Of a stretch of DNA of 64,000 nt, positions 23,690 through 46,722 are shown piece after piece. The stretch's first letter is position 1. Every line of letters starts with the position of its first letter. This DNA is from Squalus acanthias. Taxonomy: Eukaryota. The notes under the pieces are model-generated. The model was given only the letters and a program-made list of their open reading frames with translations. It searched no databases and was not told where the DNA came from. The DNA is taken from contig CM059427.1 of NCBI GenBank assembly GCA_030390025.1, forward strand, positions 39,680,001 to 39,744,000. Direction: 5' to 3'. Made by a program: the position numbers and the translations under genes.

Positions 23690-26490
23690 CGACCTCTCTC
23701 TTCAGCAGCACCGACGCACTCTATCTCAAAGCTGTCCGGGTCCACAGTTCCATTTCATCCTTCGACTCATTCGACGCTTGAACAAAAAATGTTTTCTTCC
23801 TTTCAGGTGTCAAGGATCGCAAGCTTCATCAACTCTTGAACACCAACGTCCCTCCGGAACCTTCTTCCCCTTCACTTTCCTCTGACCCCCCTTCTCCCAA
23901 TCTCACCCCCTGCCGCGTTTTCACTATCCCTTCTGACCTTCCCCTTTCTGACCCTGAACAATCAGTCCTCAGCAAAGGCCTGAGCTTCATCCCCTTACGC
24001 CCCCACCTCAATGAATTGCGAGCTCGGCACGATGCGGAGCTCTTTTTCCGCCGCCTTCGCCTCCGTGCCCACTTCTCTGGCCAGGAGTCTACCCCCGTAC
24101 GGCTGACCCTTTCTCCCGCTTTCAGAATTCCCGTTCTACCTGGACCCCTCCCTCTGGCCTCTTACCCTCTCTAGATCTTTTCATTGCCAACTGCCGGCGT
24201 GACATCGGCCGTCTCAATTTCTCTGCTCCCCTCTCACTCCAACCTACCTCCCTCTGAACTTGCAGCACTCCATTCTCTCAGATCCAACCCGGACATTGTC
24301 ATTAAACCTGCTGACAAGGGTGGTGCTGTTGTTGTTTGGCGTACCGACCTCTACTTAGCGGAAGCTGAATGCCAACTCTCCGACACCTCCTCCTACCTCC
24401 ACCTGGACCATGACCCCACTACCGAACATCAAACCACCATTTCCAAGACCGTCACTGACCTCATCTCCTCTGGAGATCTTCCCCCCCACGGCCGCCAACC
24501 TCATAGTTCCCCAACCCCACACAGCCCGCTTCTACCTCCTTCCCAAGATCCACAAACAGGACTGCCCCGGTAGACCCATCGTTTCAGCCTGTTCTTGCCC
24601 CACAGAACTTATCCCTTCCCATCTCGACTCTATTTTTTCTCCCCTTGTCCAGTCTCTGCCCACCTACATCCGCGACTCTTCCGACGCCCTCCGCCATTTT
24701 AACAGTTTCCAGTTTCCCGGCCCCAACCGCCTCCTTTTCACGATGGACATGCAATCCCTCTACACCTCAATTCCCCACCAGGATGGCCTGAGGGCACTCC
24801 GCTTCTTCCTTGAACAGAGGCCCAACCAGTCCCCATCCACCAGCACCCTCCTCCGCCTGGCTGAACTTGTTCTCACATTGAACAACTTCTCCTTTGACTC
24901 CACCCATTTCCTCCAAATTAAAGGTGTTGCTATGGGTACCCGCATGGGTCCTAGCTATGCCTGCCTTTTCGTGGGATATGTGGAACACTCTTTGTTCCAG
25001 TCCTACTCGGGTCCCCTCCCTCACCTCTTTTTCCAGTACATTGATGACTGTATCGGTGCCGTCTCCTGCTCTCGCCCTGAACTAGAACATTTCATTCACT
25101 ATGCTTCCAATTTCCACCCTTCCCTCACATGGTCCACCTCCGACTCTTCCCTTCTTCGACTTCTCCGTCTCCATCTCTGGGGATAGGTTATTGACAAACA
25201 TTCACTACAAGCCCACTGACTCCTACAGCTACCTGGACTACACTTCCTCCCACCCCGCCTCCTGTAAGGACTCTATTCCATTCCCCCAGTTTCTCCATCT
25301 CATCTGCTCTGACGATGCCACCTTCCATACCAGTGCTTCCGACATGTCTTCCTTTTTCCTCAACCGAGGATTCCCCTCGACTGTGGTTGACACGGCCCTC
25401 GACCATGTCCGTTCTATCTCCCGCACTTCTGCCCTCACCCCTGCCCCTCCCTCCCGGAACCACGATAGAGTTCCCCTTGTCCTCACCTTTCACCCCACCA
25501 GCTTCCACATTCAACGGATCATCCGCCGCCATTTCCACCACATCCAGCGTGATCCCACCACCAAACGCATCTTCCCCTCACCTCCCCTTTCAGCATTCCG
25601 CAGGGACCGCTCCCTCCGCGACACCCTAGTCCACTCCTACCACCCCCAGCACCCCTTCCCCCGGCACCTTCCCGTGCAAGCGCAGGAGATGCAACACATG
25701 CCCTTATACCTCCCCTCTTCCCACTGTTCACGGTCCCAAACACCCCTTCCAGGTGAAACAGCGATTTACTTGTACTTCCTGCAATTTAGTATACTGTATT
25801 CGCTGCTCACGATGTGGTCTCCTCTACATTGGGGAGACCAAACGCAGATTGGGTGACCGCTTTGCAGAACACCTCCGTTCAGTCTGTAAGGGGGACCCCG
25901 AGCTCCCGGTCGCCTGTCACTTTAATTCTCCGCTCCACTCCCACTCTGACCTCACCGTCCTCAGCCTATTACACTGATCCACGGTAGCTCAGCGTAAGCT
26001 CGAGGAACAGCACCTCATCTTTCGTTTAGGCACCCTACAGCCCTCTGGACTCAACATCGAGTTCAACAATTTTAGATCATAACCTCGACCCCTATCACAT
26101 TTATATTTTATTTTTTCAATCCACCCTTTTGTTTGGCCCCCCCCTTTTTTTTCCCCTCCCAGAAGCTGGCAGCTGTCCTTCATTCTGCCAGTGCATTTCA
26201 CACTTCATTTAGCCTCAACCTGTCACATTACCACCTCTTGCCTTGATTATCTCTTAATGTCGCTCAATGTCTCTTAAGCTCTCCTTTTGTTCTTTCATCC
26301 CCTCCCCCTTTTCCCAGCTTTATCCTTGCTTTAAATCTATTTCATTTCCTGCTTTTTTCCAGTTCTGACGAAAGGTCCTCGACCTGAAACGTTAACTCTG
26401 TTTCTCTCTCCACGGATGCTGCCTGGCCTGCTGAGTTTTTCCAGCGTTTTCTGTTATTTCGGATTTCCAGCATCCGTAGTATTTTGCTAT
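23690..26490 (+). mobile_element. Penelope-like element (RT plus GIY-YIG endonuclease), frameshifted, with 3' pLTR
   Basis: KPADKGGAVVV, FYLLPKIHK, GRPIVS, FTMDMQSLYTSIPH, GVAMGTRMGPSYA, YIDD and NLVYCIRCSRCGLLYIGETKRRLGDRFAEH across overlapping ORFs 23836-25977. Confidence 0.95.
26361..26397 (+). ncRNA. Minimal type I hammerhead ribozyme in the Penelope pLTR
   Basis: AGTT-CTGACGA-A-AGGTC-CTC-GACCT-GAAA-CG-TT-AACT: conserved core, stem I AGUU/AACU, stem II AGGUC/GACCU, palindromic AACGUU stem III. Confidence 0.85.
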
Positions 26491-27679
26491 CTATATTTAT
26501 GGCTAACTAGTTTCCTCCCAATTCATCCTATTGGTGCTGAAGCAGAGAGTCATCTTTCCATGAATTAACGGATTCTGTCCTCTCCCACTGCAACATCACC
26601 CTCCACTCACCTTGTAACTTACTGTTGAGGACTACTTTAAAATGATTTCATAATGCAAAGATCACTCAACCCCTCTCAGAAATGGCTAAACCAATAAATC
26701 TTCATTTGCTCCATACTATTCAAAAAAGAACAAAGATGAAAGAAAAGAAACAGATCTTCAAAAAAACCTTCATATCTCTTACAAGGTTAAAGCTATTCTT
26801 AGAGACATTTAAAATAATGAAGGAAATTGACAGGGGTGAATAGCAAGAATTGTTCCCCCTTATAGGGAACATAATGTTTGAATTTAAGTTATACCAAATG
26901 TAAGCAAGGTCAAGGAAACAACTTCACAAAATTGCAAGAATATGGAACACAATGCCCAGAAAACCACACAAATAAATTGCTGTTTAAATAAAGGAGATAC
27001 ACTTAACTGGGGAGGCGAGATATAAAAAGGAAATGGTGAAAAGGTAAGCAATTGGGATTAGAAAGATAGAGCTGCTACAGTTAACAAAAATGTAACAGCA
27101 GAGTTGATGAGCCAAATGCCCAACTCCTGTTCCTATATTCCCAAGCCTAACCAATTACTACCTTTTAACTACTTCTTAATCCACACTCCATCCTGTCAAT
27201 ATTCTTGACCTTGCCATCTCCTCTAACCAAATAGACCTCAACTCAATTACTAAAGCTACCTCCAAGTAGCTCACCTTTCTCTTTCATAGCAAACACTTTG
27301 GCTCTCCGCAATTCTATAATAAAACCCAAATTCACCCAACACTTCAATGTTGTTGCCAAATCTGGGGAAAGTCACAGAACCCAACACCCAAGACATAATC
27401 CAAGAAAAAGTTCATCTAATAAACAACTTGTCTCACTTCTGACCTTTAAACTCTTGCAATCTTCTGGTCTTAATTTTTTTTAAAAAGCTCTAAACTGGGT
27501 CGATTGAGTGCACTCGCCTGGCGTGAATGGTCTCGGTAGCCTTATTGCCACGTTAACCACGATGCAACCATATTAAAAGAGGCCAACCACCAGGTGTCCA
27601 AAGCAACCGCCTAACTCAAATGATAGGCCCTTTTTAAACATGGAAATCAGAGTCCTATTATCTAAGTAGAAACCAAACA

Positions 27680-28915
27680 ATTTATAGTGCCTTTAGCATA
27701 GTAAAATGTCCCAAGGCTCTTCACAGGAGTATTATAAAACAATACTTGGCACCAAGCCACATAAGGAGAAATTAGGGCAGATGAACAAAAGCATGGTCAA
27801 GAGGTAGATTTTAAGGAGTGTCTTAAAAAGGAGGAGGGGTAGAGAGGGAATTCCAGAGCTTAGGGCCTTGGCAACTGAAGACATGGCCACCAATGGTTGA
27901 GCGATTAAAATCAGGGATGCTCATGAGGCCAGAATTAGAGGAGCACAGATATCTCGGGGGTGGTGGGGGAAAGGGGGGCCATGTGGGGCTGGAGGAGATT
28001 AGAGAGACAGGAAGGGGCAAAGCCATGGAGGGATTTGAAAACAAGGATGAGAATTTTAAAAATCGAGGCGATGTTTAACCAGGAGCCACTGTAGCTCAGC
28101 AAGCACAGGGGTGATGAGTGAACAGGAGTTAGGACATGGGCAGCAGAGTTTTGGATGGCCTCAAGTTTACGGAGGGTAGAACGTGGAAGGCCAGCCAGGA
28201 GTGCATTGGAATGGCAAGTCTGGAGGTAACAAAGGCATGGATGAGGGTTTCAGTAACAGATGAGCTGAGGCAGGGTAGAGTCAGGCGATGTTGTGGAGGT
28301 GGAAATAGGCGGTCTTAGTGATGGCATGGATGTCTGATTGGAAGCTCATTTCATGGTCAAATATGACACCAAGTTTGCAAACAGTCTGGTTCAGCCTCAA
28401 ACAGATGCTAGGGAGAGGGATGAGTTGATGGCTAGGGAACAGAGTTTGTGGTGGGGACCGAAGACAATGGCTTCAATCTTCCCAATATTTAGTTGGAGAA
28501 AAATTCTGCTCATCCAATACTGGATGTCGGACAAGCAGTCTGACAATTTAGAGACAGTGGAGAGGTCGAGAGAAGTGGTGGTGAGGTAGAGCTCGGTGTG
28601 GTCAGCGTAGATGTGGAAACTAATTGTGTTTTCGGAGGATGTCGCCAAGGGGCAGCATGTAGCTGAGAATAGTAGGGGACCAAGGATAGATCCTCGGGGG
28701 ACACCAGAGGTAACTATAAGGGAGCAGGAAGAGCAACATTGCAGGCGATTCTCTGGCTATAAGATAGATAAGAATGGAACCAAGTGAGTGCAGTCCCACC
28801 CAGCTGGATGACAGTGGAGAAGCGTTGGAGGAGGGTGGAGTGGTCAACCATGTCAAAGACTGCACACAGGTAGAGAAGGACAAGGAGGGATAGTTTCTCT
28901 TTGTCACAGTCACAC
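27680..28915 (-). mobile_element. L2-clade LINE fragment
   Basis: FHIYADHTELYL and LQLNIGKIEAIVFG motifs. L2-type 3' end (taaaggcactataa) near 27680. Confidence 0.8.
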
Positions 28916-29515
28916 CAGATGTAATGATTGCAATTTTAGGTAGGAACTGGTCAGAGCTGCAGGAGTATAGAACACAATGCGTAGCAAGGTTTTCCAGAGT
29001 TTCAGAAGTGCGAGACTATCAGGATAGACTGAAGTCATGGTCCACATTGCAAAGCAACACTTGTATCAGCGAGAGTTTTTTTAAAAAACAAAGCACTTCT
29101 AAGCAAAATAACATTGTAATCTTTTTTAGATTTCAGCATTAAAAAAAAAACTCTGGCAATGACAATTTGAAGTCTATTACTATTCAGTAATTAGATTGTT
29201 ACAGAGCAGTGTCTGAGAAAGGTGAAAGCCCAATACTTTTTCTATTCTGGTATTTAAAAGCACCATCAGCATTTTTCTTTCCCTCCCTCCGGTTGAGAGC
29301 ATAAACCAAGTTGACGAGTTCTTCAACTGAAACTCTTTTTTTAGGTGGACTGTTATTTCCTAGTTAGACTGTTTGCATTGAATATTTCAAGGAGGAAGGT
29401 ACCAAGGCATATATTTGTTTTTATTACTTAATTTCTACAGGGTGTGCGGAGGAAGGAAGAAGAAGAAATCAAAATGTGGCTTCAGGGTTGTTTTTTTTTT
29501 TAAAAAAACACTTAC

Positions 29516-29564
29516 CTGCTGGGAGATATGTGAAGTTGCATCTTCCTCCTCTTAAAATGTCCAT
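29516..29564 (-). CDS. Candidate upstream GRB14 exon end (MDILRGGRCNFTYLPA, phase 1); may be 5' UTR
   Basis: Perfect donor CAG|GTAAGT at 29516/29515. ATG at 29564 gives 16 codons plus 1 nt, in phase with the 2957 acceptor. No transcript evidence. Confidence 0.3.
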
Positions 29565-29724
29565 GATGTGGAGATGCCGGTGTTGGACTGGGGTGGACAA
29601 ATGTGAGAAGTCGCACAACACCAGGTTATAGTCCAACAGCTTCACCTGACGAAGGAGCAGTGCTCCGAAAGCTTGATTTCAAATAAAGCTGTTGGACTAT
29701 AACCTGGTGTTGTGCGACTTCTCA
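29558..29724. mobile_element. 167-bp fold-back element (Penelope-type pLTR derivative) with a 9-bp TSD
   Basis: Perfect 40-bp inverted repeat 29603-29642 / 29686-29725. ctcttaaaa is duplicated at 29549-29557 and 29725-29733. Confidence 0.85.
29643..29676 (+). ncRNA. Hammerhead ribozyme motif in the loop of the fold-back element (stem I possibly damaged)
   Basis: CAC-CTGACGA-A-GGAGC-AGT-GCTCC-GAAA-GC-TT-GA, with palindromic AAGCUU stem III. Confidence 0.65.
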
Positions 29725-29999
29725 CTCTTAAAACGTGGTCATAATTTTTAGAAACTGCTCCGACCTCCCAATGTTTACTGCATTATTCATTTTGATACCA
29801 TTAAACACTCATCCAGCTTGGACAGTGGGGGAGTGGAGTTCTAGAATGCTAAAACTGCTGGCAATGGAAGAACTCTTACATAGAAATAACAAAGTAGAAA
29901 AGGAAGTTTGTCCCAATTAGTCCATGTTGGTGTCTATCCCCCACACGAGCAGCCGTACTAATCCCATGTGTCCACTCCGTTGCCATATCCCCACTCTGT

Positions 30000-31640
30000 T
30001 CCCATATCCACTTGTACATAAACCACCTAACTTATTAAATGTTGCCATGGTCACTGCTTCAAAGTACTAATTCCAATTGTGCATGCCACAACCCATCAAC
30101 CCTTTGTGTAAACTAAAGTTTCACTTTCTCTGTCCTAAATATCTTGCATTTAAATCTACCTCGATGTCCTTGTTTTAGACACTAGTTTGTTTCTGTCTAC
30201 AGGGTCCTATCCCTTCATAATTTTTAAAAACACACCGTAATTATAATGAAAACAGCCCAGTATATCCCACCCACCGTGCCATGTGGCTTTCCTCATAGCA
30301 AACAGTATCCTAGAAAATCCACACTGTACCCACTATTGACTCAACATCCTTTCTATAGGTGTGAAGTTCAAAACGGCACATGGTACTGTAATTGAAGTCT
30401 AAATAAGGCTTTATATAGTTTCACCATTCATCTCAAGTTTTATATTCTAAAAAGCCAGTATTCCATTAACTTGTTTCTTTTTAAAGTGTTATTCCACTTG
30501 ATTTGCTGCTTTTAATGTAGTGATGCTGAATGCCAAATCCCTCTGCTCTTCTAGTCAGCTCCAGCCATTCCCAGCCAAAAGGTATAATAATTACTTAAAA
30601 ATTTTTAAGACCTTAAATTCCACCTGTCACTTATTTGACCATTCTATCATAATATTTCCCTTTCCGCTTCTTGTGGACCCCAGAATTATCTACTATGCCT
30701 CCTATTTCAGTATTGTCTGCAAGTACGGACACCATTCACTCTAGCCCAAAATTCACTGACGTAGTGAACAGAAACAGTCAAGAGATCCTTGTGGGACACC
30801 ACTACCTACTTTCAATCACCAAGAAACTATCCTTAACATCTACTCAGTTTCTTCTTTTCTAACTCAATTTTTAAATCCAATTTCCTACCCTCCCTAATTC
30901 CACACCCCTTAATCTTCAATAGTCTCCTGCGTGGTAACTTGTCAAAAGCTCTCTCAAAGTCCATGTACACCACATCCACTGTATTTTCCCCATCCGTCAT
31001 GTACATCACCTCCTCAAAACACTCAGGTTTGTTGAGCACAATTTCCCTCTGAAATCAGTGTTGGCTGCTTCCAATTACTTTTCTCTTGTTAGATATTTAG
31101 CAATTTTATCTTTACACTAGATGTTAAAAATCACTGGTTTGTAGTTACCCAGTTTAGTTCAGTCCCCCTTTTCTGAAAGTGATTACATTGGCCAATCTAG
31201 TCCTCAGTCACCAATCCACTCAATAGAATCCTGGAATATAATTTGAGGCTTCCACTATTTCTTCCTTCATTTCCCCCTGGATTATTGTACAAGCACTTGT
31301 CCTCAAGCTTAACTAACCTCCCTAATACTTCTATTAAACAGTACTTGCTTTGTATCTCCACCAACTCCTGCTTATCTTTTAACAATTCTCTCTTCACTGT
31401 TCTTTAATTTTGAGATTTTCTCCTCATACTCCCTCTGCTTTTCTAATCCCTCTTATTTTAATCATTTGTAGGCCCCATTTGCCCTCTTCAATGTTAGTTT
31501 GTTTATAACTTCCATTTTCTCCACAGCATTCTTAAAAAAGTAGTAAATAACAATTTTGCAATCTCCTTTCAACAAATATCCCATTGTTGATAGAGTCCCT
31601 AGCTCACTTATTAACCATCTAAAATCTGCCCTATTCAAAT
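30000..31640 (-). mobile_element. Ancient, highly degraded CR1 fragment
   Basis: VDVVYMDFERAFDKLP motif in ORF 30833..31039. Confidence 0.65.
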
Positions 31641-32239
31641 CTTATCCACAAGAAGGGAAAGAATTGCACTAAAAATTATAGACACTAGATATGAACATAG
31701 GGTTTTATATGTTTTTCACAGGTTTCTACAATGTAGACCATGTAGGCTGATAATTTGAAGCAGTTTTAGGATAGGAGTTGAACTATCAAAGTTTATTTTT
31801 ATTATTCGTTCATGGGATGTGGGCATCGCTGGCAAGGCCAAGATTTATTGCCCTCGAGAAGGTGGCAGTGAGCCAATCAAATAATTTGAAGTAAGCAACA
31901 TAAACACTACAAAGTGGAAATTTGATAGGAAAAATATTTTAATTATAATTTGATTTGAATAGCCTGCAGTGCATTTAACTAGTTTTGTGTGTAAAATCTG
32001 TTCATATACATATTTCATTAGGGGGAAAAACATTATAGCTCTAAGTTTTTCCATGTCCTTAGAAGGAGACCAAAGAGTTCTTCCATGCTATAAATTGAAT
32101 TTATGTATAAAAATTATAGAAATGTGGAAGATTTTTTTTTAAACTAAGAAAAGGTACCACCTTGTGCCCATCATTCTAAAACCCCATTTTTGTAGATTAC
32201 TAACATTGAAAATATCAATGCTGAAGTTTCACCACCTTT

Positions 32240-32576
32240 AAAGAAAGAACTTCCATTTATATCGTGCATTTCACAACCTCAAGACATCCCAAACCTTTCA
32301 CAGCCAATTAATTACTTCTGAAGTGTAGTCACTGCCGTGATGTTGGGGGAATAGGCACAAGGTCCCACCAACAGCAATGGGATAAATTGACCAATTTAAC
32401 TGTTTTAGTGGCGTTGGTAGAGGGATAAATGGATAGCTTGGTCATCAGGTGAACTCCCCTGCTCTTTGAATAGTGTTAGGAGATCTTTTATATTCACGAG
32501 AGGGCAGATAGGTTGTATTCTAAAGAGGACACCCGATAGTGCAGTGCTCCCCTGCAGTACAGTCCTAGAGTGGGAC

Positions 32577-32611
<35 letters not shown>

Positions 32612-32630
32612 ACTACTGAACCAAAGCTGG
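32240..32630 (-). mobile_element. Internally deleted copy of the same Deu-like SINE
   Basis: Shares head (LLPLSQKVMGSSPT frame) and tail with the 37079-38256 copy. Confidence 0.7.
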
Positions 32631-35234
32631 TATCTTCAGCAGCCAATGACAAAAAAACCAAGCACATGATAATCTTCTTCCACACTATCCCAACACAAAT
32701 CTTCAATGCAGTGAGCTATGGAGAATTTACCACTAGCAACAGAAACAGATATTCTACAATCACCCACAGCTGATTTTGCCCCTTCATGGGTGCAAATACT
32801 ATATTTAAAATTGAAAGGTCTAACAGACTTTGTATGATGGCAACTTATTGCTTTCGTGGACAAGCCACCAAGGTCATATTCTTTTTGCAAATTAACTCCT
32901 ACAATAGCACTACTTGTGTCTAGGATTTCAGCAAAGTGAAATAGTGGATATGCATTTTCCACACTGTGTCTGCATGAATTGTTTAAAACACCCAACAGTA
33001 TTAGACTTGATGTTTCAAACTTAAGCTGCATTTAAAAATAGCATTGCTACACACTAGGGTGAAGTAATGGTGATAACAAGTCAGTGATGCCAGTAATGGA
33101 GGAGCAATTTGAAGTTATATTATAAATAGCACAAGATTAAAGTCTATTGGCCTAACTGATGTTCTCCCCCCCCCCACCCACCCATCATAGTGTATTCATA
33201 GACATGGTATACACACTTAAATGATAATATTCAGTTAAAGACTAAATACTGAAGACCTGTCTAAAAGCACTCAATTTGTAACGAGAGGTGGCCAGTAAAC
33301 AACTAACTACTGTAGCAGGTACAATAACTGTTCCTATACAAAAGTAATCCCAGTTTGAACAAATAAAAAGTTAGAAGTGTCCAGTGTTTAAGTGTGAAAT
33401 GATTGTTACTGCTACAGAGCAACAAGCTACATTGTTATGCACCTTGTACAATTGTGTACCGAAATGAAAAACCACACAAGGTACAATATGAATCTGCCTC
33501 AAAAGAATCAGTTCAGAACTGCTAGAAGCATATTGGATAAAAAGACCATCTTTCAGTTATCTGCCAGAAATGAAGTGTCTTGCCATAAATACTGAAGTAT
33601 GCTTTTGTATTAGTTACCTGACTGTGTGATAGAAGTATAATTGCTGTGCTATTTTTTTTTATACAGTTACATTGCCTGCCAACAACCACCCCCCCCCCCC
33701 TTTAGATTTGTCAGCCAAGCACCTTACTTTGAAGTGATTTACATTACCACCATTGAAAGTGCCTATTAAAATATTACATATAACTTATTGCACCATACCA
33801 GAGAGATTAAATAAAGCACTCAATGTATTATTCACTCGTGTATGGAGTGGGGAAAAGAAGTGTTTAACATGTAATACTACTTCTTAAAAATCATAGTCCC
33901 CCATCATCTTTGCAAAAAGGTAATGAGAACCTTATCTAAATATTTAAAAAAATACTTGTGGCACTAAAGTAATTTGTAATAAAGGTCTTTAGATTTTCCA
34001 AGTTGAGCTTGATGACATAATAGGTGCCAGTCTTGTTGCATTATCAGTTTCCAAATCCTACCAGCCAGAGAAGAATCATGGAATGAAGGTGCAAGTCAAC
34101 ATCACAAATACCATTTAAGTTAATGGCCTTTATCAACATCTCCAACTTGCATTCCCATAAAAGAGGATTTCTTTCTTCAAACACCACCCACAAATAAATG
34201 AGCAAACAGCCACTTGTTCTGCACACAATTAAAAACTTCATACATAATATGATAAAGCTACAGTCTTAACATAAGCAATAGCTGCTTCTCATTATATTGC
34301 ATGCCATGCAAATAAAATTCAGGTAAATTTAAAAGAATTTAATCTTTGGAGACCCTCTAGATGAAAGGTGTCTTGTATTACACACAATCTCTAACCAAAC
34401 TTAAGATTGACTTCAATGGAAGGAAAATTGGACATGTGTATCACAGGCAGCTGATCCACTACCACCTGTTTTCCACCAAGAAATTGAATTTTACCCCCAA
34501 TGAGACAAAGTACAAACAGCTTGTGATGAGCATATATGGATCTTCTCCCACCCCATCTAACCAATACCACAAACATATTGAATATAAACAAGGTAAAATC
34601 TACAGTTTGAACAAAGTGAATATAAATTGAAGGGAGAGGAGAGAAGTTATATTTGGTTGACATCCATGCACTACTAATCATGTGAAGTTCCTTTGTGCAT
34701 TCTAAAAAAGTTTTTTGAAATAGTTAAACGATTTTTATTCTATGACCTCTCCAAAACACAAATCTTCTAGTTTCCTGATTGGGAAATAATAATTGAGGAC
34801 AAACTACTAAAAGCCAAGCTTTCAATCTGCAAGAGATGGTGGAGGACAATGTGTCAGTTATTCTGCTCCACATTGTGACATAAATATGGAAGCTGTCAGC
34901 CAAAACAGCTAAGCATTGTTGAAAGTTAAAAGCACATTATTGCATCCTGTGGGAGCTTTTTTGGGGAAAATTCAGTTCTTGAAACAGTTCTTAATGCTTT
35001 GAATAATGCTGCCAGAACACCAGACTGAAAATCAAAAAAAAAATTTCAAATCTAATTAAAAAGGCTTTAACAAAAACAAAAGGAGATACAGTGACAAAGA
35101 CACTGACAGCATCACAACCCAAAACATCTCCCAAGATAGTTCAACTTCAAAAGCGAGCCCCTTTAAAATGGCACCTGCAGCCGCTCAGGGAGCTGTGTGG
35201 CGGTGACAGGCTCCCAGAATTGCACTACTCTTAC

Positions 35235-36200
35235 CTGGAAGGGTGAAAGTAGTAAAACAAAAATTAGGGCGGGAGGAAAGCAAAACACAGATTCTTCCTC
35301 CCTCGTTAAACCAAGCCTAAATGCTTCAAGATTCAAAAGGAGCAAAACAAACGTCAGCAATAAGAGTTATCTTCACTTAACGTTAACGAGCTAAAAGTGC
35401 AAATGTTATCAGTCGTGCACTTGACTCGGATACCAAGTATTAGTAAATGCACAACAACTGGCTTTTAAAATGCAAGATTACTCCAGAAAGCTAACAAATA
35501 AAGTTTGCTTCGTTTTAAAGCGTCGCACTTCAACCCGGTTACTATTTTTATTTCAGACGGTCACGACCAGTTCAAGGCGTACCATATGATTTTTTTTTAA
35601 ACTAGTGTCAACCAATAATATTAAAGCTAAATCTGTGAGTAAACACCCTACACAATGCAACGCCACAGATTAAAAACCAGCAGTAACTAAGCCTCTGAAT
35701 TCCGGTCAGCGCACTGGGTGAAGCACTTGAACTTGGGGCTTTTGCTACAGTACAAAGCACCGACACCACTTTCTCTCAGCTCGCTTGAAAGCAAATGGCC
35801 GTAGAACTGCTGACCTTAGAGCGCCTGGAGGTACAACCGAGCCGCTCGCGCTGTCCCGGGGACCTCGCCAGCTCAATGAATGAACGCCAAGCCCAGCTGT
35901 GGCTCGTGAATTTTAACAAGTGTCGCGATACGTAAGCAAAGATCTGACGCAACCCGTCCACTCCCTCACCTGCACCGCATGTGCCTGGAACCTGCATCTT
36001 ACCCGGAGTTTCTGCAGTATATCACTTCTACCAAGATGCACAATCCTTCCGTCGCTGTTTATAATCATCAGCGACAAAAAGATTTCGTATCAAGTTCCTA
36101 TGCAGATTTATCACTCGGTTGGCTAAATCAGTTGACCTATTTATAGAATTATAATAGGTAAGGGTGGGCGAATCCTCACCAGCTCTACCTTTATATCCCT
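35235..36200 (-). promoter_or_regulatory. CpG-rich candidate promoter / non-coding first exon(s) of the downstream minus-strand gene (GRB14)
   Basis: CpG enrichment in non-repeat DNA at about 35400-36080. CTATAAATAG (TATA/MEF2-like) at 36146-36137. GC/KLF box gggtgggcg at about 36162-36170. Minus-strand donors CGG|GTAAGA (36003/36002) and CAG|GTAAGA (35235/35234). Confidence 0.5.
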
Positions 36201-36243
36201 CTGGTTTAATGATTTATCAGTTTCAAATCCTATATGAGTCAAA

Positions 36244-36387
36244 ATATGTTCCTTTTACCTGTTTTGGCATGGTATTTTGCAATTCTATCCATAAATAAAT
36301 AAGTGGTCTCATTATATATGTTCCTTTTACTTGTTTTGGCATGGTATTTTGCAATTCTATCCATAAATAAATAAGTGGTCTCATTAT
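36244..36387. repeat. Tandem duplication, 2 x 72 bp
   Basis: The unit atatgttccttttac...ggtctcattat occurs at 36244 and 36316 with one mismatch. Confidence 0.95.
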
Positions 36388-37078
36388 ATATATTTAACCA
36401 GGGCACACAGGAAGATAGTAAGCAAAGCATAGTAGATTGGAAGTAGGCATGTCAGATTTTGCAGTGGGGACAGGGGCAGGTATGGGTTTTAGCAACTGTT
36501 ACAGGTGTTGCTGGACTTTAGCAGCATTGGCATATGGAATGAGGAGCATTGGCTTACTGGACGATTCCTGGTGTCTGGAGAAGTGGGCTGGGTCTTAAGT
36601 TTTGGCAGCGGTGTGGGCAGTGGCTCCCAGACTTTGGGAACACCGGTGGGAAATACCGGGATCTGTCAACATCAGTGGCAGTACTGGGAGAGGGAATTCT
36701 TGGGAACTGGTAAAATTGTGAGGAAGCTGTCTTGGTCTGGCAGCACCGAGGAAAAGCATTTCATTATTTGGGAGCACTGAAGGAGACATCGGTTTCTATC
36801 AGTACAGGGAGAAGAGGGTCTCAGAGTGTGGCAACACTGGCTAGTTGCAACGGGGAGAGAAGTGATGGGAGTCTAGTAACATTAGAGAGGAGCATTTTTA
36901 CGTCTGGGAGAGGGCACCCAGTGGTCTGAGAGCACTAAGATGAGGACCCCTAGGGTCTGGGAGCTACAAGTTGGGGGCAGGAATCCAGGGCCTGAACTAA
37001 TCCCAGCCTTTACTGGCTCCTGGCATGAAGCTAATTTTAAGTGCAAACTCTGCTGTTATGCTATTTGTGGAGTTTATG

Positions 37079-38256
37079 AAGAAAGACTTGTATTTATATA
37101 GCACCTTTCACGACCTTAGGAGGTCCCAAACACTTTACAGCCAATTAAGTACATTAAGGTGTCATCATTGTTGTAATGTAGGAAATGAGGCGGCCAATTT
37201 GCACACACCAAGATCGCGTGAACAGCCTGAACCAGATAATGGCCTAGAGTTTCCGCTAGTCGCCTGAAATCGGCCAAACTAGCGTAAAAGTTTGCAGAAT
37301 TTTAAACGCAAGTTATCTCAGGCGTAAATCGAGTTTCCCTGATCTTTAATACTTGTTTAAAAAACATGGTGCTGGAAGCCAGCCCCGCCCACAAAACTGG
37401 CCACTCCCCAGATCGAAATAATGAGGATCGCGTGTTTCCACCGATTGCGCCTGTTTGCGAACGTTTGAGGAGGCTCTTCAAATTAAGTTAGTTTTTTAGG
37501 CACACAGGCACTAGTAGGCACGCTTTAAAAGTTTTTAAATATTAAAAAATCTTTAATTTACTAAGAAACTGACTAGTGTACACCAATGAAACTAGCAGAT
37601 GGTTCAGTGTAGCTTTTTAAAGTCATTTTCAGTGATTTAAAATCAGATTATTTGCAGGTAGTGGACTAGACACTCTTATTAAAAATGTTTATTTTTTGTG
37701 ATAAACCCATTTTCAGCTGTATTAATAAAACTATACCAGGTTACCACACTTAAATACATCAATGAATATTTTTTAATGCAAGGGAAAAAAATGAACAATT
37801 ACATTCTATTACTCTGCCTGATTGTGCTGGTTCATGGAAGCGTTCACATTTCTGATTATGCTAATGAGTTTGGGCGGAAACTTGAGCCATAACTTCACTT
37901 CAGAAAAACAGCTCAATTTCTGCCCAGATTGCCGATTGCACCCTAAGCGCAAACTCTACCCCAATCTGTTTTAGTGATATTTGTTGAGGAATAAATATTG
38001 ACCAGGACGTCAGGTATAACTTCCTGCTCTTCTTCGAAATAGTGCCATGTAATCTTTTATGCCCACTTGAGAGAGTAGATGGGGTCTTGGTTTTAACGTC
38101 TCACCTGAAAGACGGCACCTCTGACAGTGCAGCACTCCCTCAGTACCGTACTGGAGTATCAGGCTAGATTTTTGTGTTCTATTCTCTGGAGTGGGACTTG
38201 AACCCATTACCTTCTGACTCAGAGGCAAGAGTGCTATCACTGAACCACGCCTGACA
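37079..38256 (-). mobile_element. tRNA-derived SINE with a Deu-like central domain (SacSINE1/AmnSINE1-like), split by a MITE
   Basis: Head gtggttcagtgatagcac...gggttcaagtccc (A/B boxes), central gagggagtgctgcactgtcagaggtgccgtc and an L2-type tail. Confidence 0.75.
37241..37962. mobile_element. MITE (722 bp) with an AAT TSD
   Basis: Ends ggcctagagtttccgcta / taagcgcaaactctacccc. AAT at 37238-37240 and 37963-37965. The SINE rejoins across it. Confidence 0.82.
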
Positions 38257-39206
38257 CTTACACCACCTGATGCCTAGGAATAGGTTGGGTCACATTAAGT
38301 CTGTAACTCATATACACTCTTTCCTTTCTCTGTCTCTCTCTCCCTTTCTCTGTCTCTCGCACACACACAAAAACACGCTAGTCTATCAAGACAAGAGTAA
38401 AGCTCACCTCAGATAAAAGTCCCACACTTCATGGTTTACATTCTTTTTGCATTCAAAATTAAATTAGCTGACAATTTTCTGTTTTTCTTAATGTGAGTGT
38501 TTAATTGACTGAAACAGAAAAATATCTTTATTATACATGATGGCCAGTCTCCGAAGATGTGGTGAGACTTGAGAGTCCACAGCCCTTATTTGTGACAACA
38601 TCAGGGATGTTTTTTCTTCATTGCAGACTCCAATGGACTGTTTGGCAGTTCATTGGAAATTTTGGCAGCCCCACCTAAGAAGCGGCCAAGGACTATTATG
38701 TGCCTCCTCCTCCATGGAAGCACAGACGCAGCTCTAATGGCCGTAGGGGACAGAATAGACAGCAATCTGTATACCAGCTTTCCAATTCTGGGAGCCAGGA
38801 TACAGGCTACTTTTAGACTAGGCATCTCATTAGTTAGTGGGACACAGATCCAGGGCCCAGTAGAACATCAATGGCTGATACGGACCTGTCTGAGGCTGCC
38901 CTTTTTAGGACAGCAATTATCCAGCCTTCTCCTTCAGAGCACCATACCAGTAGCTCGTAAGAGCTACCGCCAAGGAGCAAGCTACCATGATGGGGGTGGG
39001 GGGCACCTCAATCCCATGAGCCTTTTATAGCACAGGAGCAGCCAACCACAATCCCAGACCTCAGGTGGAACCTAGTGGAAGCACGAGAATGAGAGAAAGA
39101 AAGCAGGTTTAGACAGCCAAGGAAAGGACAGTATCAGGAAAGAATAAAAATAGAAAACGCTGGAAAAACTCAGCAGGCCAGGCAGCATCCGTGGAGAGAG
39201 AAAGAG

Positions 39207-39243
39207 AGTCAACGTTTCAGGTCGATGACCTTTCGTCAGAACT
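39207..39243 (-). ncRNA. Minimal hammerhead ribozyme (inverted pLTR copy)
   Basis: Exact reverse complement of 39743-39779. Confidence 0.8.
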
Positions 39244-39742
39244 GTGAAGAGCCGGAAATCAAATAGATTTAAGGCCAGAGTAAAGCTGGGAAAAGGGGGA
39301 GGGGATAAAAGAACAAAGGGGGAGATGAAGAGACACCGTCCTCGGCCTATTACATTGTTCCACGGAAGCGCAGCGTAAGCTCGAGGAACAGCACCTCATC
39401 TTTCGTTTAGGCACGCTACAGCCCTCTGGACTCAATATCGAGTTCAACAATTTTAGATCATAACCTCAGCTCCAATCACATTTATATTTTATTTTTTCCA
39501 CCCTTTTATTTGCCCCCCCCGCCACCTTTTTTTTCCTCCTAGAAGCTGGCAGCTGTCCTTCATTCTGCCAGTGGCTTTCACACTTCTTTCAGCCTTAATC
39601 TGTCACATTAACACCACCTCTAGCCTTGCATATCTCTTAATGTCTCTTAATGTCTCTTCATCTCCCCCTTTGTTCTTTTATCCCCTCCCCCTTTTCCCAG
39701 CTTTACTCTGGCCTTAAATCTATTTGATTTCCGGCTCTTCAC

Positions 39743-39779
39743 AGTTCTGACGAAAGGTCATCGACCTGAAACGTTGACT
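39743..39779 (+). ncRNA. Minimal hammerhead ribozyme
   Basis: AGTT-CTGACGA-A-AGGTC-ATC-GACCT-GAAA-CG-TT-GACT, with a G-U wobble in stem I. Confidence 0.82.
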
Positions 39780-40024
39780 CTCTTTCTCTCTCCACGGATG
39801 CTGCCTGGCCTGCTGAGTTTTTCCAGCGTTTTCTGTTGTTATTTCAGATTTCCAGCATCCGCAGTATTTTGCTATCGTATCAGGAAAGAATAAATTGGCT
39901 TATATTTACTTTGGAGTTTCTTTATATTAAAATGGAATTTGTGCATCAGCCATGGCTCCGCTGGTGGTACTCTTGCTTGAGTTAGAAGGTTGAGGGTTCA
40001 AGTCCCACTCCAGAGACTTGAAAA

Positions 40025-40300
40025 ACAACAACTTGTATTTATATAGTGCCTTTAACGTAGTAAAACATCCCAAGGCACTTCAGAGGGATGCTCAAGAGGC
40101 CAGAATTAGAGGAGCGCAGATATCTCGGGAGAATGTGGGGCTGGAGGAGATTACAGAGATAGGGAGAGGCGAGGTCATGGAGGGCTTTGAAAACAAGGAT
40201 GAGAGTTTTAAAATCGAGGCGTTGTTTAACCGGGAGCCAATGTAGGTCAGCGAGCACAGGGGTGGTGGATGAACGGGACTTGATGTGAGTTAGGACAGCT
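40025..40300 (-). mobile_element. L2 3' fragment
   Basis: LADLHWLPVKQRLDFK motif and the same 3' end as the 27.7-28.9 kb element. Confidence 0.8.
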
Positions 40301-40361
40301 GAGTTTTACAACCTACGTAAATGTGAGACCACCCAATGAGGGGCAAAGGAATCTGATGTTT

Positions 40362-41005
40362 TGGCCCTGATTTTGCTGTAATAATGGCGAGTTAAACGCT
40401 GAAATCCAGAAGTTGCTGTCAGAGAAACCCTGCTCCTCCACAGGGTGCACTGTTGCAGTCCTCGCTGATAGACTCAGTACTGAAATCACTGTAATAATGT
40501 GAACTTAGGGTACTTACCCATTAGTTCTGCACTAAAAATGTCTGAAAAAGTTAGGGCTGGTGCATTTAGGAGTGAGTTTTAACAGTGTAATAAGTGATCA
40601 TTACTGCTGAACAACCTCTCTGGCCCTGAAAAAAATAATTTTACAAGTGTGAAGTCTCATTTCCTCAGAAGAAAATTAATGTTGCAGATTTTTAATTTTT
40701 TTTTTACTTGTTCATTTGTCTCTTTTATCTTTCTCCCTTAATCCTATCTGTATTTTTCAATCTTTATTTTTCTTCCTGTACATGATTTAAATGTAATTTA
40801 TATTTCCTGTTTTTTACTTCCTGGTTTGCAGTCTGAATGTCTCAGTGAGAATACTTCAATCTGATTGGTTGAAGAGCCTTGCTGTTGCTTTCCCTGTTCA
40901 AAGACACCACATATCCCCTGTAGAGGGCGTCACACTGAAACAGATGTCAATTAATGGAAAGCCCTGCTGACAAGCCCGCAAAAAGTCTCTGGGCAACGAC
41001 AGTTT
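40362..41005. mobile_element. Degenerate MITE-like element of the same GG-terminated class
   Basis: Starts ggccctgattttgc and shares internal organisation with the 37241 and 54400 elements. The right end is not clear. Confidence 0.45.
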
Positions 41006-41009
41006 TCAT

Positions 41010-42560
41010 AAAGTTGGCTTGTGTTCCCTTGAATTCAGAAGGCTGAGAGGTAAATTAATTGATGTGTTTAAAATGACTAAAGGAGTTGATACAGTAGATA
41101 CAGAGAAGCTATTTCTTCTGGTTGGGCAATCCAGAAGAAGGGGGCATAATCTTAAAATTAGAGTCAGGCCATTTAGGAGTGAAATCAGAAAGCATTTTCC
41201 ACACAAAGGGTCGTTGAAATCTGGAATTTTCTCCCAAAATAACTATAGATGCAGGTGCTAAGTCAATTGAAATTTTAAAGTCTGAGATCAACAGATTTTT
41301 ATTAGATAAGGGTATCAAGAGTTATGGATCAAAGGCAGGTAAATGGAATTGCTATAAAGATCAGCCATGACCTAGTTGAATGGAAGAACAGGCTCAAGGG
41401 GCTGAATAGCCTACTCCTGTTTCTATGATGTTCCAAGTGGATACTGGAATGAAGGATTAGTCCTTTATTTTAAGGTGGGACAAGAAGGAACTGAAGCATC
41501 CACATGTATGCTGACGACATCCAGCTGTACCTCTCCAGCACCTCTCTCGACGTCTGCGCTCCCTTTGTGTTGACAGATTGCTTGTCCAATACCACGTCAT
41601 GGGTGAACTGCAATTTCCAAAAGCAGTAGCGACAAAGGTGACTATGTTAAAGAGAAGACATCAGTGATCAGTTGTGTTCGATGTCAGCAGTCACAGAGAA
41701 GACATTTAATCATTTCATCTAAATATTTCTGCCTCCAAGCAATTAGGGCCATCTCCCAGAAATGTTCACATTCAAGCTTTTTTGGATGATGAAGGTGTGC
41801 AGGGCAGAGCAAGTTTCACTATGGGGTATAAATGAGCTGGAACATACTGCAGAGCCTCTCCTGATCACTTAAGGTAGTGAAAACACCACTTTAAGACAGT
41901 TCTCCCATTGATACCTTATTAGATACAGAAAAGCTATTTCCTCTGGTTGGGCAATCCAGAAGAAGGGGACAGAATCTTAAAATTAGATAAGGGCATCAAG
42001 GGATATGGATCAAAGGCAGGTAAATGGAGTTGCTTTAGAGATCAACCATGACCTAGTTGAATGGCAGAACAGGCTCAAGGGGCTGAATAGCCTACTCCTG
42101 TTTCTATGATGTTCCAGGTGGATACTGGAATGAACTCTGTTGTGCCTCATTGTAGTACTCCTCTGCTGCTGTTCATGCAACGCTAAATGGGGTCATTATC
42201 AATGGGAGCAGGGGGGTAGGCCTCATCACCCAAAAGACATCCATTGGCATTACATAGGATATACAGCATAGAAACAGGCCATTCGGCCCAACCAGTCCAT
42301 GCCGACGTTTATGCTCCACTTGAGCCTCCTCCCGTCTTTCCTCATCAACTATCAGCATAACCTTCTATTCTCTTCTCCCTCATATGCTTCTCGAGCCTCC
42401 CCTTAAATGCATCTATACTATTTGCTTTAACCACTCCCTGTGGTAGCGAGTTTCACATTCTCACCACTCTCTGCGGAAAGAAGTTTCTTCTGAATTCCCT
42501 ATTGGATTTCTTGGTGACTATCTTATATTGATGGCCTCTAGTTTTACTCTTCCCCACAAG
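41010..42560. mobile_element. Cluster of short CR1 3' fragments (41010-41430 +, 41920-42110 +, 42255-42560 -)
   Basis: SLEFRRLRGKLIDVFK motif and CR1 3' stem-loop motifs (gaacaggctcaaggggctgaatagcctactcctg). Confidence 0.75.
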
Positions 42561-42877
42561 ACTTCTTCTGTATCCCAGGAGCACTGAGACAAATTGTATC
42601 ACCATTAACAATGCCCCATCTGAGATTAGCTAATTCAACACAGATCAAGAATTGAACCAGTCGCCTTCCTCTCTCCATGGCCTAAATATTGAGAGGATAA
42701 ACTCACTGCGCAATTGGCAAGAGTTTGTGGAAGATGCCTCTCCAAACCATACGACTGAATTTTAGGAAAGTTAAAAATATTAAGACTGGAATTCTGGAAC
42801 AGCTAGCAGTCTTGCAGAGAGCTGAGACAAAGGGACTTACATACACACTCACAGGCATCGAGGAAGAATTTCCATAG

Positions 42878-42996
42878 GGTTCTCCTGATCTCCCACCACA
42901 ACTTTGGCGGAAACGCTGGAAAAATGGTGCAAATTGCTATTTTTAGTTGTTTCTCCAGGGTTCCTGCCAAAGTTACGGTGGGAGATCAGGAGAACC
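42878..42996. repeat. Short hairpin (MITE-like) inverted repeat
   Basis: Perfect 20-bp arms ggttctcctgatctcccacc (42878-42897) / ggtgggagatcaggagaacc (42977-42996), extending imperfectly inward. Confidence 0.8.
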
Positions 42997-44120
42997 ACCA
43001 CAGGAGTTCTAGGCACAGGTGTTTCCAGTTAAGCCTGGAACCACAGGGTAGTAAACCTGTCAAAATAACAAACCTAAGAGGCTAATTGACAGGTAAGAGC
43101 GTTTGCATCAACAACTGTTAAGTAAACAGAAAAGCTTTTAAGAATATATTAGGGTCATGAGATGGCCCTTTGGTTATAGTTTAGGTGCTGGAAAAGCTAA
43201 GGGATATAGCACAGTTTCAAAAGGCCTGCTTGTAATTTGACCATCATACTTGCTGAAAAGATGCCTGTCCAGTTGACAGATTCTTTGGCAAGGATCCATG
43301 TGACAAAGTTAATTCTTTTTCACTTGGCCACTAAGATTTAGTCACAAAAGTGGGTTTGTCCGAGTAGAATTTAAGGTATAAGGATATGCTTTTCCCCAGG
43401 CTAGGGAAAGGAAGGACAAGGCAAGAAAAACTGCATACCTGTAAAGCAAAACAGAGATGGCAGAGAGGACAGAAAGAGCAAAACAAAGAGAAGATTCCAA
43501 GAAAGTGTGAGGAAACTTTCTAGCAAGGACAAAAAGTTCAACAGAACATTTGAAATAGTTCTGCAGAAGCAGAGTGAAATTGTTCAAAGTGAAGTTGTAG
43601 GATTAAGAAACATTAAGAGTTTAAACTGACTGAAGTAAACCTGGAAAATGCATTACAATTGTATTTAATAGCTTACGTCTTTGGGCATAGTGAGAGAATA
43701 TAAAGACAGCATAGCAATACAGAGAAACATGTACATGCAACATTAGCTAAGCCAGAACAAGACGATAACCAAAAAATGACCACCACCACCACAAACAGCA
43801 ACTCGTTGCTGGCGTCCCCAGGATGAAGCTGAGAATCCAAGGGAATATCAAACAGCTGGTGCCTCAAAGCCAATCCAGCAGAAGGACTCACCCAATAGTG
43901 GAGATAGCCTGGAAACTCAGCTTTTAACTTGTCAGCAACATGTCGACCATGAATGATAAGCTTAACCTTGCTAAGCCATATGGTAACCTCATAAATTCAA
44001 CATAGCTTTGTTATTCTGTAATCAAGAGAACCCAGCTGCAACAGAGATGCTGCAATACACTCACATTACATTTGTGCCTATAATTACTTTAATGTATCAA
44101 TTAGTAACTTCTGTTTCAGT

Positions 44121-44222
44121 TCTGTTCTGATGAAGGGTCATAGACCTGAAACGTTAACACTGTTTCTCTCTCCACAGATGCTGCCTGACCTGCTGAGTAT
44201 TCCCAGCATTTTCTGTTTTTAT
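44121..44222 (+). mobile_element. Solo Penelope pLTR fragment
   Basis: Similar to 26361-26460. Flanked by ttctgtttcagt / ttctgttttagt, a probable 12-bp TSD with one mismatch. Confidence 0.75.
44123..44159 (+). ncRNA. Minimal hammerhead ribozyme
   Basis: TGTT-CTGATGA-A-GGGTC-ATA-GACCT-GAAA-CG-TT-AACA. Stem I covaries relative to the other copies. Confidence 0.82.
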
Positions 44223-44997
44223 TTCTGTTTTAGTGTCTACTGTAATTTTCAATGCTTAATCTTGTCATGGTATTAGTTGTGTTAACTTAGATTTTGTGAA
44301 TAGAATATTAGTGTATCTCTGTGCCTAACTTCATCTTTGATGACTTTGGCATTCTTTTCAGGGTTGTACTGTAATTATGTGGTGACTACTTCAATGCATA
44401 ATTATTAACATACATTGGACTAGGTATGTATCAGAAGTGAGCTAAATTAGGCATTTTATAAACCTTAGATATATACAGTAGAAGTTCCGATGTATACTTT
44501 TTAAGAAAAAGGACAAAGTTTGATCCAATTTTTTTTCTTTTGTTCATAGGATGTGGGCGATATTGGCAAAACTGCATTTATTGCTCAACCTAGTTGCCCC
44601 GACAAGGTGGACCTTCTCCTTGAACTGGTGCAGTCTTTGTGCTAATGGTGCTCCCGTGCTGGTGTTAGGTAGGGTATTCCAGGATTTTTGACCCAACTAT
44701 GGTGAAGGAACAGCAGTATATGTCCAAGTCAGGAGGGTGTGTGACCAAGAAAGGAACTTTTGAGATGATTGTGTTCCAATGGCATTACGAGGGTAAAATT
44801 GGTCTGCACCAGTAGCATGAAACGGGCTCATAGTGAATTGACAGCCCATCTTTTCCATTGTCTTCAATAGCAGGGATGAGAGGGCTGTCCGATGAGGAGA
44901 GATTGAGCAAAATGGGCCAATATTCTCTGGAGTTTAGAAAACTGAGAGGTGATCGCATTGAAATGCATAAAAGTGCTTGACAGGATAGATGCTGTGA

Positions 44998-45329
44998 GGT
45001 GCTGTGAGGTGCTGTGAGTATTTGAACTCACTTTCGCGGGCTTTTCTTCACAGGCTGTTGTCGGGAGCGACGAGACCGGAGGTGCTGTGAGGTGCTGTGA
45101 GTATTTGAACTCACTTTCGCGGGCTTTTCTTCACAGGCTGTTGTCGGGAGCGACGAGACCGAAGGTGCTGTGAGGTGCTGTGAGTATTTGAACTCACTTT
45201 CGCGGGCTTTTCTTCACAGGCTGTTGTCGGGAGCGACGAGACCGGAGGTGCTGTGAGGTGCTGTGAGTATTTGAACTCACTTTCGCGGGCTTTTCTTCAC
45301 AGGCTGTTGTCGGGAGCGACGAGACCGGA
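44998..45329 (+). repeat. 4 x 83-bp tandem monomer array in the CR1 5' UTR
   Basis: Units start at 44998, 45081, 45164 and 45247. They are nearly identical (one G>A near the end of unit 2) and CpG-rich. Confidence 0.95.
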
Positions 45330-45774
45330 AGCGGACCAGGTGGGAAGTACCCAGGTGAACGGCATTTAAGGAGGGTGGTGGCTTAAACCCGAGTTCCTAC
45401 AGAGTAGGAACCCCCACCCGCCCTCCTCCTCTAACCTACTAGTCTTTTAGCAGTCTAAAAACAGAGATCACAAATTTTTTGGTCTCAGTTTCTTTTCAGC
45501 AGGGCAGGACGGTTACCGGGAGGAGCGGGAAGTCGGCGTAGGACCAAGGGAACACAAGACCGGGAAGTCAGCGAAAGACCAGGGAGGGAAGACTAACTGG
45601 TAAGTACTTTCCTCAAACCTTCCTAGAAAGTAAAACTAAAACTAGTGGGATTTGGTTAGTTTAAAAAGGAATAAGAGGAGTACAGTATACATTGGTCTAA
45701 GTAAGCTTCGGGAAAACAAAAGTCAATAAATAAACTAAAACTAGAAAATTAAAAAGTAATATAAGGGTTAAGTC

Positions 45775-46722
45775 ATGGCAGTAGAGCTCGGACCTGTGTC
45801 ATGCTCCTCCTGTAACATGTGGGAAATCAGGGACGCTTCCTGTGTCCCTGACAACCATGTGTGCGGGAAGTGTGTCCAGCTGCAGCTCATGTGGGACCGC
45901 ATGACGGCCCTTGAGCTGCGGATGGACTCACTTTGGAGCATCCACGATTCTGAGAGGGTTGTGGATAGCACATTTAGTGAGTTGGTCACACCGCAGGTTA
46001 AGGCCAGCGTAGATAGTACATGGGTGACCAAAAGGCAGAGCAAGGGCAGGAAGGTAGTGCAGAAATCCCCTGGGGTTGTCTCCCTTAGCAACAGGTTCAC
46101 CGCCTTAGGTGCTGTTGTCGGGGGGGATGACTCATCGGGGGAAGGCACCAGCAGCCAGGCTCATGGCACCATGACTGGCTCTGTTGCAAAGAAGGGAGGG
46201 AAAAAGAGTGGCAGGGCTATAGTAATAGGGGATTCGATTGTAAGGGGAATAGATAGGGGTTTCTGTGGTCGCGACCGAGACTCCAGGATGGTATGTTGCC
46301 TCCCTGGTGCAAGGGTCAAGGATGTCTCGGCGCGGGTGCAGAACATTCTGGAGGGGGAGGGGGAACAGCCAGTTGTCGTGATACATGTTGGTACCAACGA
46401 CGTAGCTAAAAAAAGGGAAGAGGTCCTACAAGTAGAATTTAGGGAGTTAGGAGCCAAGCTAAAAAGTAGGACCTCGAAGGTAGTAATCTCTGGATTACTA
46501 CCAGTGCCACGTGCTAGTAAGAGTACAGAGAACAGGATAGTTAGGCTAAATACGTGGCTTGAGCAGTGGTGTAAGAGGGAGGGTTTTAAATTTTTGAGGC
46601 ATTGGAACCAGTTTTGTGGTAGGTGTGACCTATACAAAAGGGACGGTCTACACCTGTGCAAAGATGGAACTGATGTTCTCGGGGTAATTTTTGATAAAGC
46701 AGTTCGGGAGCATTTAAACTAG
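45775..46722 (+). CDS. CR1 ORF1: zinc finger/leucine zipper plus SGNH esterase-like domain (315 aa, intact)
   Basis: CxxC..CxKC, VIGDSIVR, HVGTND and DGLHL motifs. Confidence 0.92.
   Translation: MAVELGPVSCSSCNMWEIRDASCVPDNHVCGKCVQLQLMWDRMTALELRMDSLWSIHDSERVVDSTFSELVTPQVKASVDSTWVTKRQSKGRKVVQKSPGVVSLSNRFTALGAVVGGDDSSGEGTSSQAHGTMTGSVAKKGGKKSGRAIVIGDSIVRGIDRGFCGRDRDSRMVCCLPGARVKDVSARVQNILEGEGEQPVVVIHVGTNDVAKKREEVLQVEFRELGAKLKSRTSKVVISGLLPVPRASKSTENRIVRLNTWLEQWCKREGFKFLRHWNQFCGRCDLYKRDGLHLCKDGTDVLGVIFDKAVREHLN

Follow-up and report, generated by a model that had tools for sequence, protein, structure and literature searches.

Minimal hammerhead ribozymes in two abundant Penelope-like families of Squalus acanthias, which probably form the 5′ end of the element RNA and are probably mostly uncut when that RNA is copied

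Minimal hammerhead ribozymes are known from the pseudo-long terminal repeats (pLTRs) of Penelope-like elements (PLEs), where the motif class, the extra base after the core, the palindrome, and the model of cleavage as a dimer are all already published (PMC4209133); the dimer-cleaving PLE hammerheads of Lunse et al. (2017) are summarised in PMC6765202. The role of these motifs has been called unclear (PMC8557442), and in the text consulted on PLE minimal hammerheads sharks are not named. Here we analysed a stretch of 64,000 nucleotides of Squalus acanthias (contig CM059427.1 of assembly GCA_030390025.1, positions 39,680,001 to 39,744,000, forward strand; henceforth the window), together with the genome to which it belongs. 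We consider it probable that the hammerheads of this shark—pLTR motifs of two abundant PLE families, designated A and B—constitute the first 33–40 bases of the element RNA, and that this RNA is mostly uncut when copied.

A first-pass annotation of the window had proposed four 37-mers as minimal PLE hammerheads with a palindromic stem III, and their positions and strands, their stem and loop letters, and that identity were all borne out, while a fifth motif, belonging to the second family, had been missed:

26361..26397, + strand: hammerhead copy 1, family A, with the predicted cut at 26393/26394 and A-U at positions 10.1–11.1
39207..39243, − strand: hammerhead copy 2, family A, in the inverted arm of the same insertion as copy 3
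39743..39779, + strand: hammerhead copy 3, family A, in the direct arm
44123..44159, + strand: hammerhead copy 4, family A, with a first U derived from the insertion junction, a last A that is a sporadic change, and G.U at 10.1–11.1
29642..29674, + strand: fifth minimal hammerhead, family B, with G10.1-C11.1, an AGCU palindrome, and a CUU site

The four family A copies share one layout: an arm of stem I, CUGANGA, an unpaired A, a 5-bp stem II closed by a 3-nt loop, GAAA, and thereafter CG, UU, and the 3′ arm of a 4-bp stem I. The extra A after the core, to which the annotation had drawn attention, is thus present in all four, which feature is a published trait of the class (PMC4209133). When the CUGANGA..GAAA pattern was sought on both strands of the window, 14 matches were obtained, a clean stem II being found in only five, namely the four above and one at 29646. 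All five motifs possess the hammerhead core (C3 U4 G5 A6 N7 G8 A9, G12 A13 A14, A15.1, U16.1, H17), although the fifth is likely dead because 2 nt are missing from its 3′ stem I arm. No hammerhead match to the window was returned by Rfam at E ≤ 5, a result to be expected of a motif that lacks stem III. Judged by their sequences, the five are minimal type I hammerheads of the kind known from PLE pLTRs, and some copies are possibly still catalytic; nearest-neighbour folding favours folds other than the hammerhead, which method does not model the core and so constitutes no test of catalysis.

The motifs reside in the following host insertions:

23932..26491, + strand: decayed, 5′-truncated family A PLE with reverse transcriptase (RT), Cys linker, GIY-YIG endonuclease, and pLTR with tail; 5′ end approximate
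39131..39894: single short family A insertion, consisting of an inverted arm (39143–39335, − strand) and a direct arm (approximately 39334–39876, + strand)
44109..44234, + strand: stub from family A, approximately 100 nt long, that starts at the 5′ arm of the ribozyme
29562..29727: family B fold-back stub with approximate ends, its inverted tail meeting the direct copy at the stem I 5′ arm

The first of these elements, terminated by hammerhead copy 1, was recognised from RVT_1 at 24359–25183 (E 7.8e-6) and GIY-YIG at 25630–25974 (E 2.3e-4), both under the Pfam cut-off, in a Pfam search that covered 21 of the 53 open frames of the window and was the sole search for host genes; moreover, tblastn with an 877-aa relative covered 23932–25887 in four main pieces and three frames. 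The second is bounded by an 18-nt target duplication (39131–39148 and 39877–39894) and its two arms are 99% identical, so that copies 2 and 3, as arms of one insertion, are not independent. The family A stub has 12-nt duplication-like flanks with one mismatch (44109–44120 and 44223–44234). No copy in the window has the same-strand partner motif of a whole element, and no head-to-tail array of hammerhead-bearing units was found there; the window copies are dispersed or inverted, mostly decayed insertion products. In this respect they differ from the non-LTR retrozymes (bioRxiv 10.64898/2026.07.22.740005), which form tandem arrays, though in these, too, type I hammerheads are linked with PLE pLTRs, one chondrichthyan case having been reported.

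Throughout the 3.71-Gb genome the family A core pattern has 40,682 exact matches versus none for the reversed control, an abundance that is not due to chance, while a loose hammerhead descriptor gave 110,890 matches versus 215 for its control. Anchors placed downstream of the motif matched 51,015 times for family A and 90,712 times for family B, the latter anchor having replaced an earlier pattern that caught a minor subfamily only (1,016 matches). The shark copy number is accordingly more than 10 times the 4,000–9,000 published for coelacanth and Xenopus, albeit with different descriptors. Of the copies that were picked by the downstream anchor only and that extend past the motif, 34 of 55 in family A and 40 of 57 in family B passed checks of the core, of stems I and II, and of the palindrome. 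Family A has the palindrome ACGU and the cleavage site GUU, family B AGCU and CUU, so that the palindromic positions 15.2–16.2, devoid of any stem-loop III, read CG and GC, respectively. A palindrome of this kind, along with the core, the unpaired base between 9 and 10.1, the 4-bp helix I, the location in pLTRs, the predominance of single truncated copies, the opposite-strand pairs, and the covarying families, are those described for PLE minimal hammerheads; a helix II of 5 bp, the A-U or G.U at 10.1–11.1 in family A, and a lineage with C at position 4 (U4C) are unlike them.

The proteins of the two families are 32% identical and have in common a C-x4-C-x2-C linker between RT and endonuclease. 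One open reading frame (ORF) that encodes RT and, C-terminally, a GIY-YIG domain, together with a pLTR, an inverted 5′ copy, and an optional tail, places both among the endonuclease-bearing (EN+) PLEs. Neptune and Nematis (PMC8557442) have the same arrangement of RT, Cys linker, and C-terminal GIY-YIG, as well as the inverted 5′ copy and a tail of 30–40 nt; their CX2-5CxxC linker trait is present in both shark families. At locus L281 (3895–7064) a near-whole family B element has two identical motifs, spaced 3,136 nt apart, that enclose an open frame of 877 codons; the ATG of this frame is about 90 nt past the hammerhead cut site, the closest named relatives of its product are shark proteins (80–92% identity), and a further copy lies on the opposite strand upstream of the element. 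In the Anolis element Poseidon PAc (Frangieh et al., 2024; PMC11167929), as in the shark families, there are two 3′ end points, one short and one with a "tail," with the hammerhead upstream, and uncut RNA serves as the template, as we propose here; the PAc motif, in contrast, overlaps the ORF start, whereas the family B motif lies about 90 nt upstream of its ATG, and the Cys linker of families A and B has no counterpart in Poseidon.

To locate the beginnings of the copies, we took all 100 listed anchor matches for each family, none selected on the ribozyme. Upstream of the cut, family A had 37 starts at 15–44 nt, 3 at 5–14, 5 at 45–99, and 50 farther, while family B had 34 at 25–54 nt, 11 at 5–24, 6 at 55–99, and 46 farther; starts near, at, or past the cut site itself accounted for only 5 and 3 of the 100, respectively. 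Stubs or fold-back arms made up about half of the 200 sampled copies, with 5′ ends that accumulate at the ribozyme or within its 5′ half. The modes of the 5′ ends lie 3–4 nt upstream of C3 in family A and 7 nt upstream in family B, at or beside the A of CCAGTTC or TCACTTC, both of which fit the initiator consensus YYANWYY. Genome-wide, with boundaries numbered from the cut, family A gave 190 at −34, 493 at −33, and 406 at −32, and family B 142 at −37, 686 at −36, and 1,584 at −35, in counts that require four mismatching flank letters, the flank codes differing in their chance of matching. Of the first 100 family A copies, counted by hand, 57 moreover have a G immediately before A(−33), against a background of 38% (p 9e-5); at an internal family B boundary a G precedes in 15 of 93. 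Where a fold-back arm ends in GTGAAG, the untemplated base preceding A(−36) was a G 10 times and an A once. Since an untemplated, cap-derived G has been described for L1 and SVA (PMC4859970), the excess of G before A(−33) would suggest the start of a capped RNA, which interpretation of the sequences we consider suggestive.

A start at the front edge of the ribozyme has, nevertheless, a number of observations weighing against it, to which the cut-site excess of family B and the altered core of family A described below must be added. The samples came from the first 3–7 Mb of one contig and included segmental duplicates and two-armed insertions; the edge in family A is broad, with ends from −18 to −36 and not at one base; and the 5′ end of the whole element at L281 lies some 10 nt farther upstream than the proposed position. 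As to the G, it also precedes the −32 boundary of family A in 38 of 100 copies; among 40 family A loci inspected it belonged to the duplicated target in 5 and was extra in 3 target-duplicated cases, while of 10 junctions called as inverted 8 had a terminal G; and fold-back microhomology explains both the −35 junctions of family B, which are the commonest, and most of the G's before −36. An alternative that we hold to be rather unlikely is that no transcription starts there and that the ends pile up through RNA or cDNA structure because RT stalls or switches templates in palindromes. The many short copies that are fold-backs via microhomology in stem I or stem II, as well as the scatter of ends over about 25 nt, speak for such stalling; the ends, however, lie at the far (5′) side rather than at the side where RT enters, the counts fall sharply just upstream of the A (142 versus 686; 190 versus 493), simple target-duplicated stubs terminate at the same place, and G is in excess at −33. 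A transcription start in the pLTR has a parallel in Penelope of Drosophila virilis (PMC2377424), whose pLTR harbours an internal, LINE-like (long interspersed element) promoter with an initiator; there the start precedes a 75-nt intron by 46 nt, whereas the shark start would lie at helix I itself.

At the cut itself, family A yielded 139 starts versus 146 at −3 and 154 at +3, a small excess being possibly hidden because, at most of the control loci examined, another element seems to have inserted in a nested fashion. In family B 236 starts coincided with the cut versus 80, 93, 99, and 91 at nearby boundaries (2.4–3x, in a comparison without a count at −1); of the first 100, though, about 28 were fold-backs through stem I (hand count), inverted junctions appeared in 13 of 20 inspected, and such starts represent about 1% of copies at most. 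Family A thus bears no clear footprint and family B a weak, confounded one. The model of PMC4209133, wherein efficient cutting of the dimer releases a unit-length RNA that, once circularised, becomes the template, would gain from the family B figures and from the whole ORF flanked by two motifs at L281, and copies across the cut are likewise what a re-ligated circle would yield; we nonetheless consider this course quite improbable, since a circle has neither an end at −33/−36 nor a cap, the family B excess is small and rich in fold-backs, and family A shows none against controls that nested insertions inflate. As a separate observation, insertions of a GC-rich element whose ends resemble AAAATT..GCC recur no more than a few bases from the cut site of family A (L328–L338, L340–L351, L003, and L181), in about 10 of 12 and 7 of 12 of the loci inspected; the element possibly prefers GTTAAC as its target.

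With respect to the conservation of the ribozyme, the annotation had seen compensatory covariation among its four copies, which claim did not hold: copies 2 and 3 belong to one insertion and the remaining changes are not paired. The presumed pair AGUU/GACU is a one-sided change, and in UGUU/AACA the first member is a junction product—in copy 4 its U originates from TTCTG, duplicated where the insertion joins its flank—and the second a sporadic mutation. With all loop variants taken together, the genome contains 200 occurrences of AACA; for TGTT there are 1,230. Among the first 30 loci of each, TGTT accompanied AACA in two copies, both being junctions and one being copy 4, while AACA accompanied TGTT in none, about 29 of those copies having been judged truncation junctions; a compensatory U-A pair in stem I was thereby ruled out. 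Also rejected was a distal extension of stem I, suggested by copies 3 and 4, because the letters upstream of copy 4 are host flank. Selection on RNA structure, which the annotation had further proposed, is evident in the master lineages, between subfamilies, but not in the stem I variation then cited, which arose at or after insertion. In a pooled set of 409 copies, enriched by searches and not random, the third pair of stem I in family B was C-G in 146, U-A in 36, U.G in 5, and otherwise in 3 of 190 copies, and stem II has C-G, U.G, and U-A forms between subfamilies; this constitutes true covariation between family B subfamilies, comprising few inherited events, on simple counts of the forms.

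In the same pool variation is found at N7, in loop II, and at N17, and, U4C excepted, all other core positions are fixed. Of the 29 variants recurring in three or more copies, 26 also retain the stem-closing context, two carry U4C, and all have A as the unpaired base between 9 and 10.1. Family B keeps the conserved G10.1-C11.1, whereas family A has A-U in 114, G.U in 59, and another combination in 5 of 178 copies, so that the usual G-C is replaced by A-U or G.U in 173 of them; the predicted fold of the family A monomer, moreover, buries the core. A family A-like motif with the canonical G10.1-C11.1 and a 4-bp stem II occurs at locus L106 (minus strand, offset 349), and may represent an older state that preceded G.U and A-U. 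As to U4C, position 4 is a C in 79 of the first 100 of the 1,509 copies of one family B subfamily (hand count), and 3,782 exact copies exist genome-wide, most of those listed falling into a handful of loop variants. U4C reduces activity in vitro yet allows viroid infectivity in vivo (PMC3088659).

The spread of the U4C lineage, which numbers about 3,800 exact copies and includes several variants of the loop, and the loss of G10.1-C11.1 in family A, might mean that cutting is no longer needed and that the motif is kept as a promoter, a splice acceptor, or a protein-binding element. We find this hardly credible: the remaining core positions are fixed in 29 of 29 recurrent variants, a compensatory change in stem II persists within the U4C lineage itself, and that substitution is tolerated in the viroid. 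What could speak for a splice acceptor is that the sequence preceding family A resembles a branch point, a pyrimidine tract, and AG, the elements of the 3′ splice consensus. A pyrimidine tract and CAG stand directly before stem I (26330–26362 and 39715–39744; L001, L017), with CTAAC in some subfamilies, in likeness to helix I of D. virilis Penelope, which the intron end meets (PMC4209133). No spliced form was encountered, however, and no GT..AG joint appeared among the nine contig joints listed, though contigs cannot show absence of splicing; templates that were spliced and have their end at the AG of AGUU were likewise rejected, in that the target-duplicated stubs have no upstream exon in common.

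Elsewhere in the window we observed a CR1-like LINE (45772–49935) with a GDSL/SGNH esterase-type ORF1, an apurinic/apyrimidinic (AP) endonuclease, and RT; additional CR1-type fragments near 8000–9000, 16000–17300, 28400–28756, and 54815–56336; and a tandem array of near-identical units with an 83-nt period (44997–45410).

Building upon the motif anatomy, the host element, the copy number, the subfamily covariation, and the 5′-end positions, all established directly, we propose that transcription would begin at the A of AGUU in family A or of ACUUCAC in family B, giving rise to a transcript with a capped 5′ hammerhead, a leader of about 90 nt, the ORF, and a second hammerhead. RT would prime internally, 55–110 nt past either hammerhead: from the 5′ copy it would reach the end of the RNA and leave a stub or a fold-back, and from the 3′ copy it would generate the long copies. 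For cleavage, two copies would have to pair via ACGU or AGCU, probably with the assistance of protein, and the cut would be a slow event affecting the fate of the RNA—by taking off the capped leader, by trimming, or by forming a circle—rather than a prerequisite of reverse transcription. This proposal is in keeping with the Anolis element, since there too priming is internal, the hammerhead cleaves only with protein, and cleavage is dispensable for insertion in vitro (PMC11167929). Two side observations concern the same region. A conserved hairpin downstream of the cut (26410–26476, GAUGCUG..CAGCAUC) encloses the shorter 3′ end point and is, on its predicted structure, a candidate for RT binding or priming; and one contig (run X9, of uncertain DNA or RNA origin) joins the tail end at 39877 to 39746 in the ribozyme 5′ arm, as would a head-to-tail dimer of stubs.

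In our search, mainly of the open literature without supplements, neither the PLE ribozymes of sharks nor transcription starting at the motif proved to be the subject of any paper; shark motifs or U4C may already be listed by Lunse et al. (2017) or in supplements of papers. The motif class being known, what the present results offer is a mechanism made testable: a genome with over 100,000 natural insertion records constrains the role of the ribozyme, the templates having probably been mostly uncut and the 5′ ends lying at its front edge, and natural core variants with copy-number histories allow a side-by-side assay. As a more tentative extension, which we regard as possible though doubtful, the hammerhead would be the capped 5′ leader of the mRNA and its cleavage in dimers would remove the cap, acting as an off-switch or timer. 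If that were true, tens of thousands of stubs would record the transcription start, some with a copied cap G, and the weakened cores—U4C, and A-U or G.U at 10.1–11.1—would have been favoured or tolerated in lineages that later spread.

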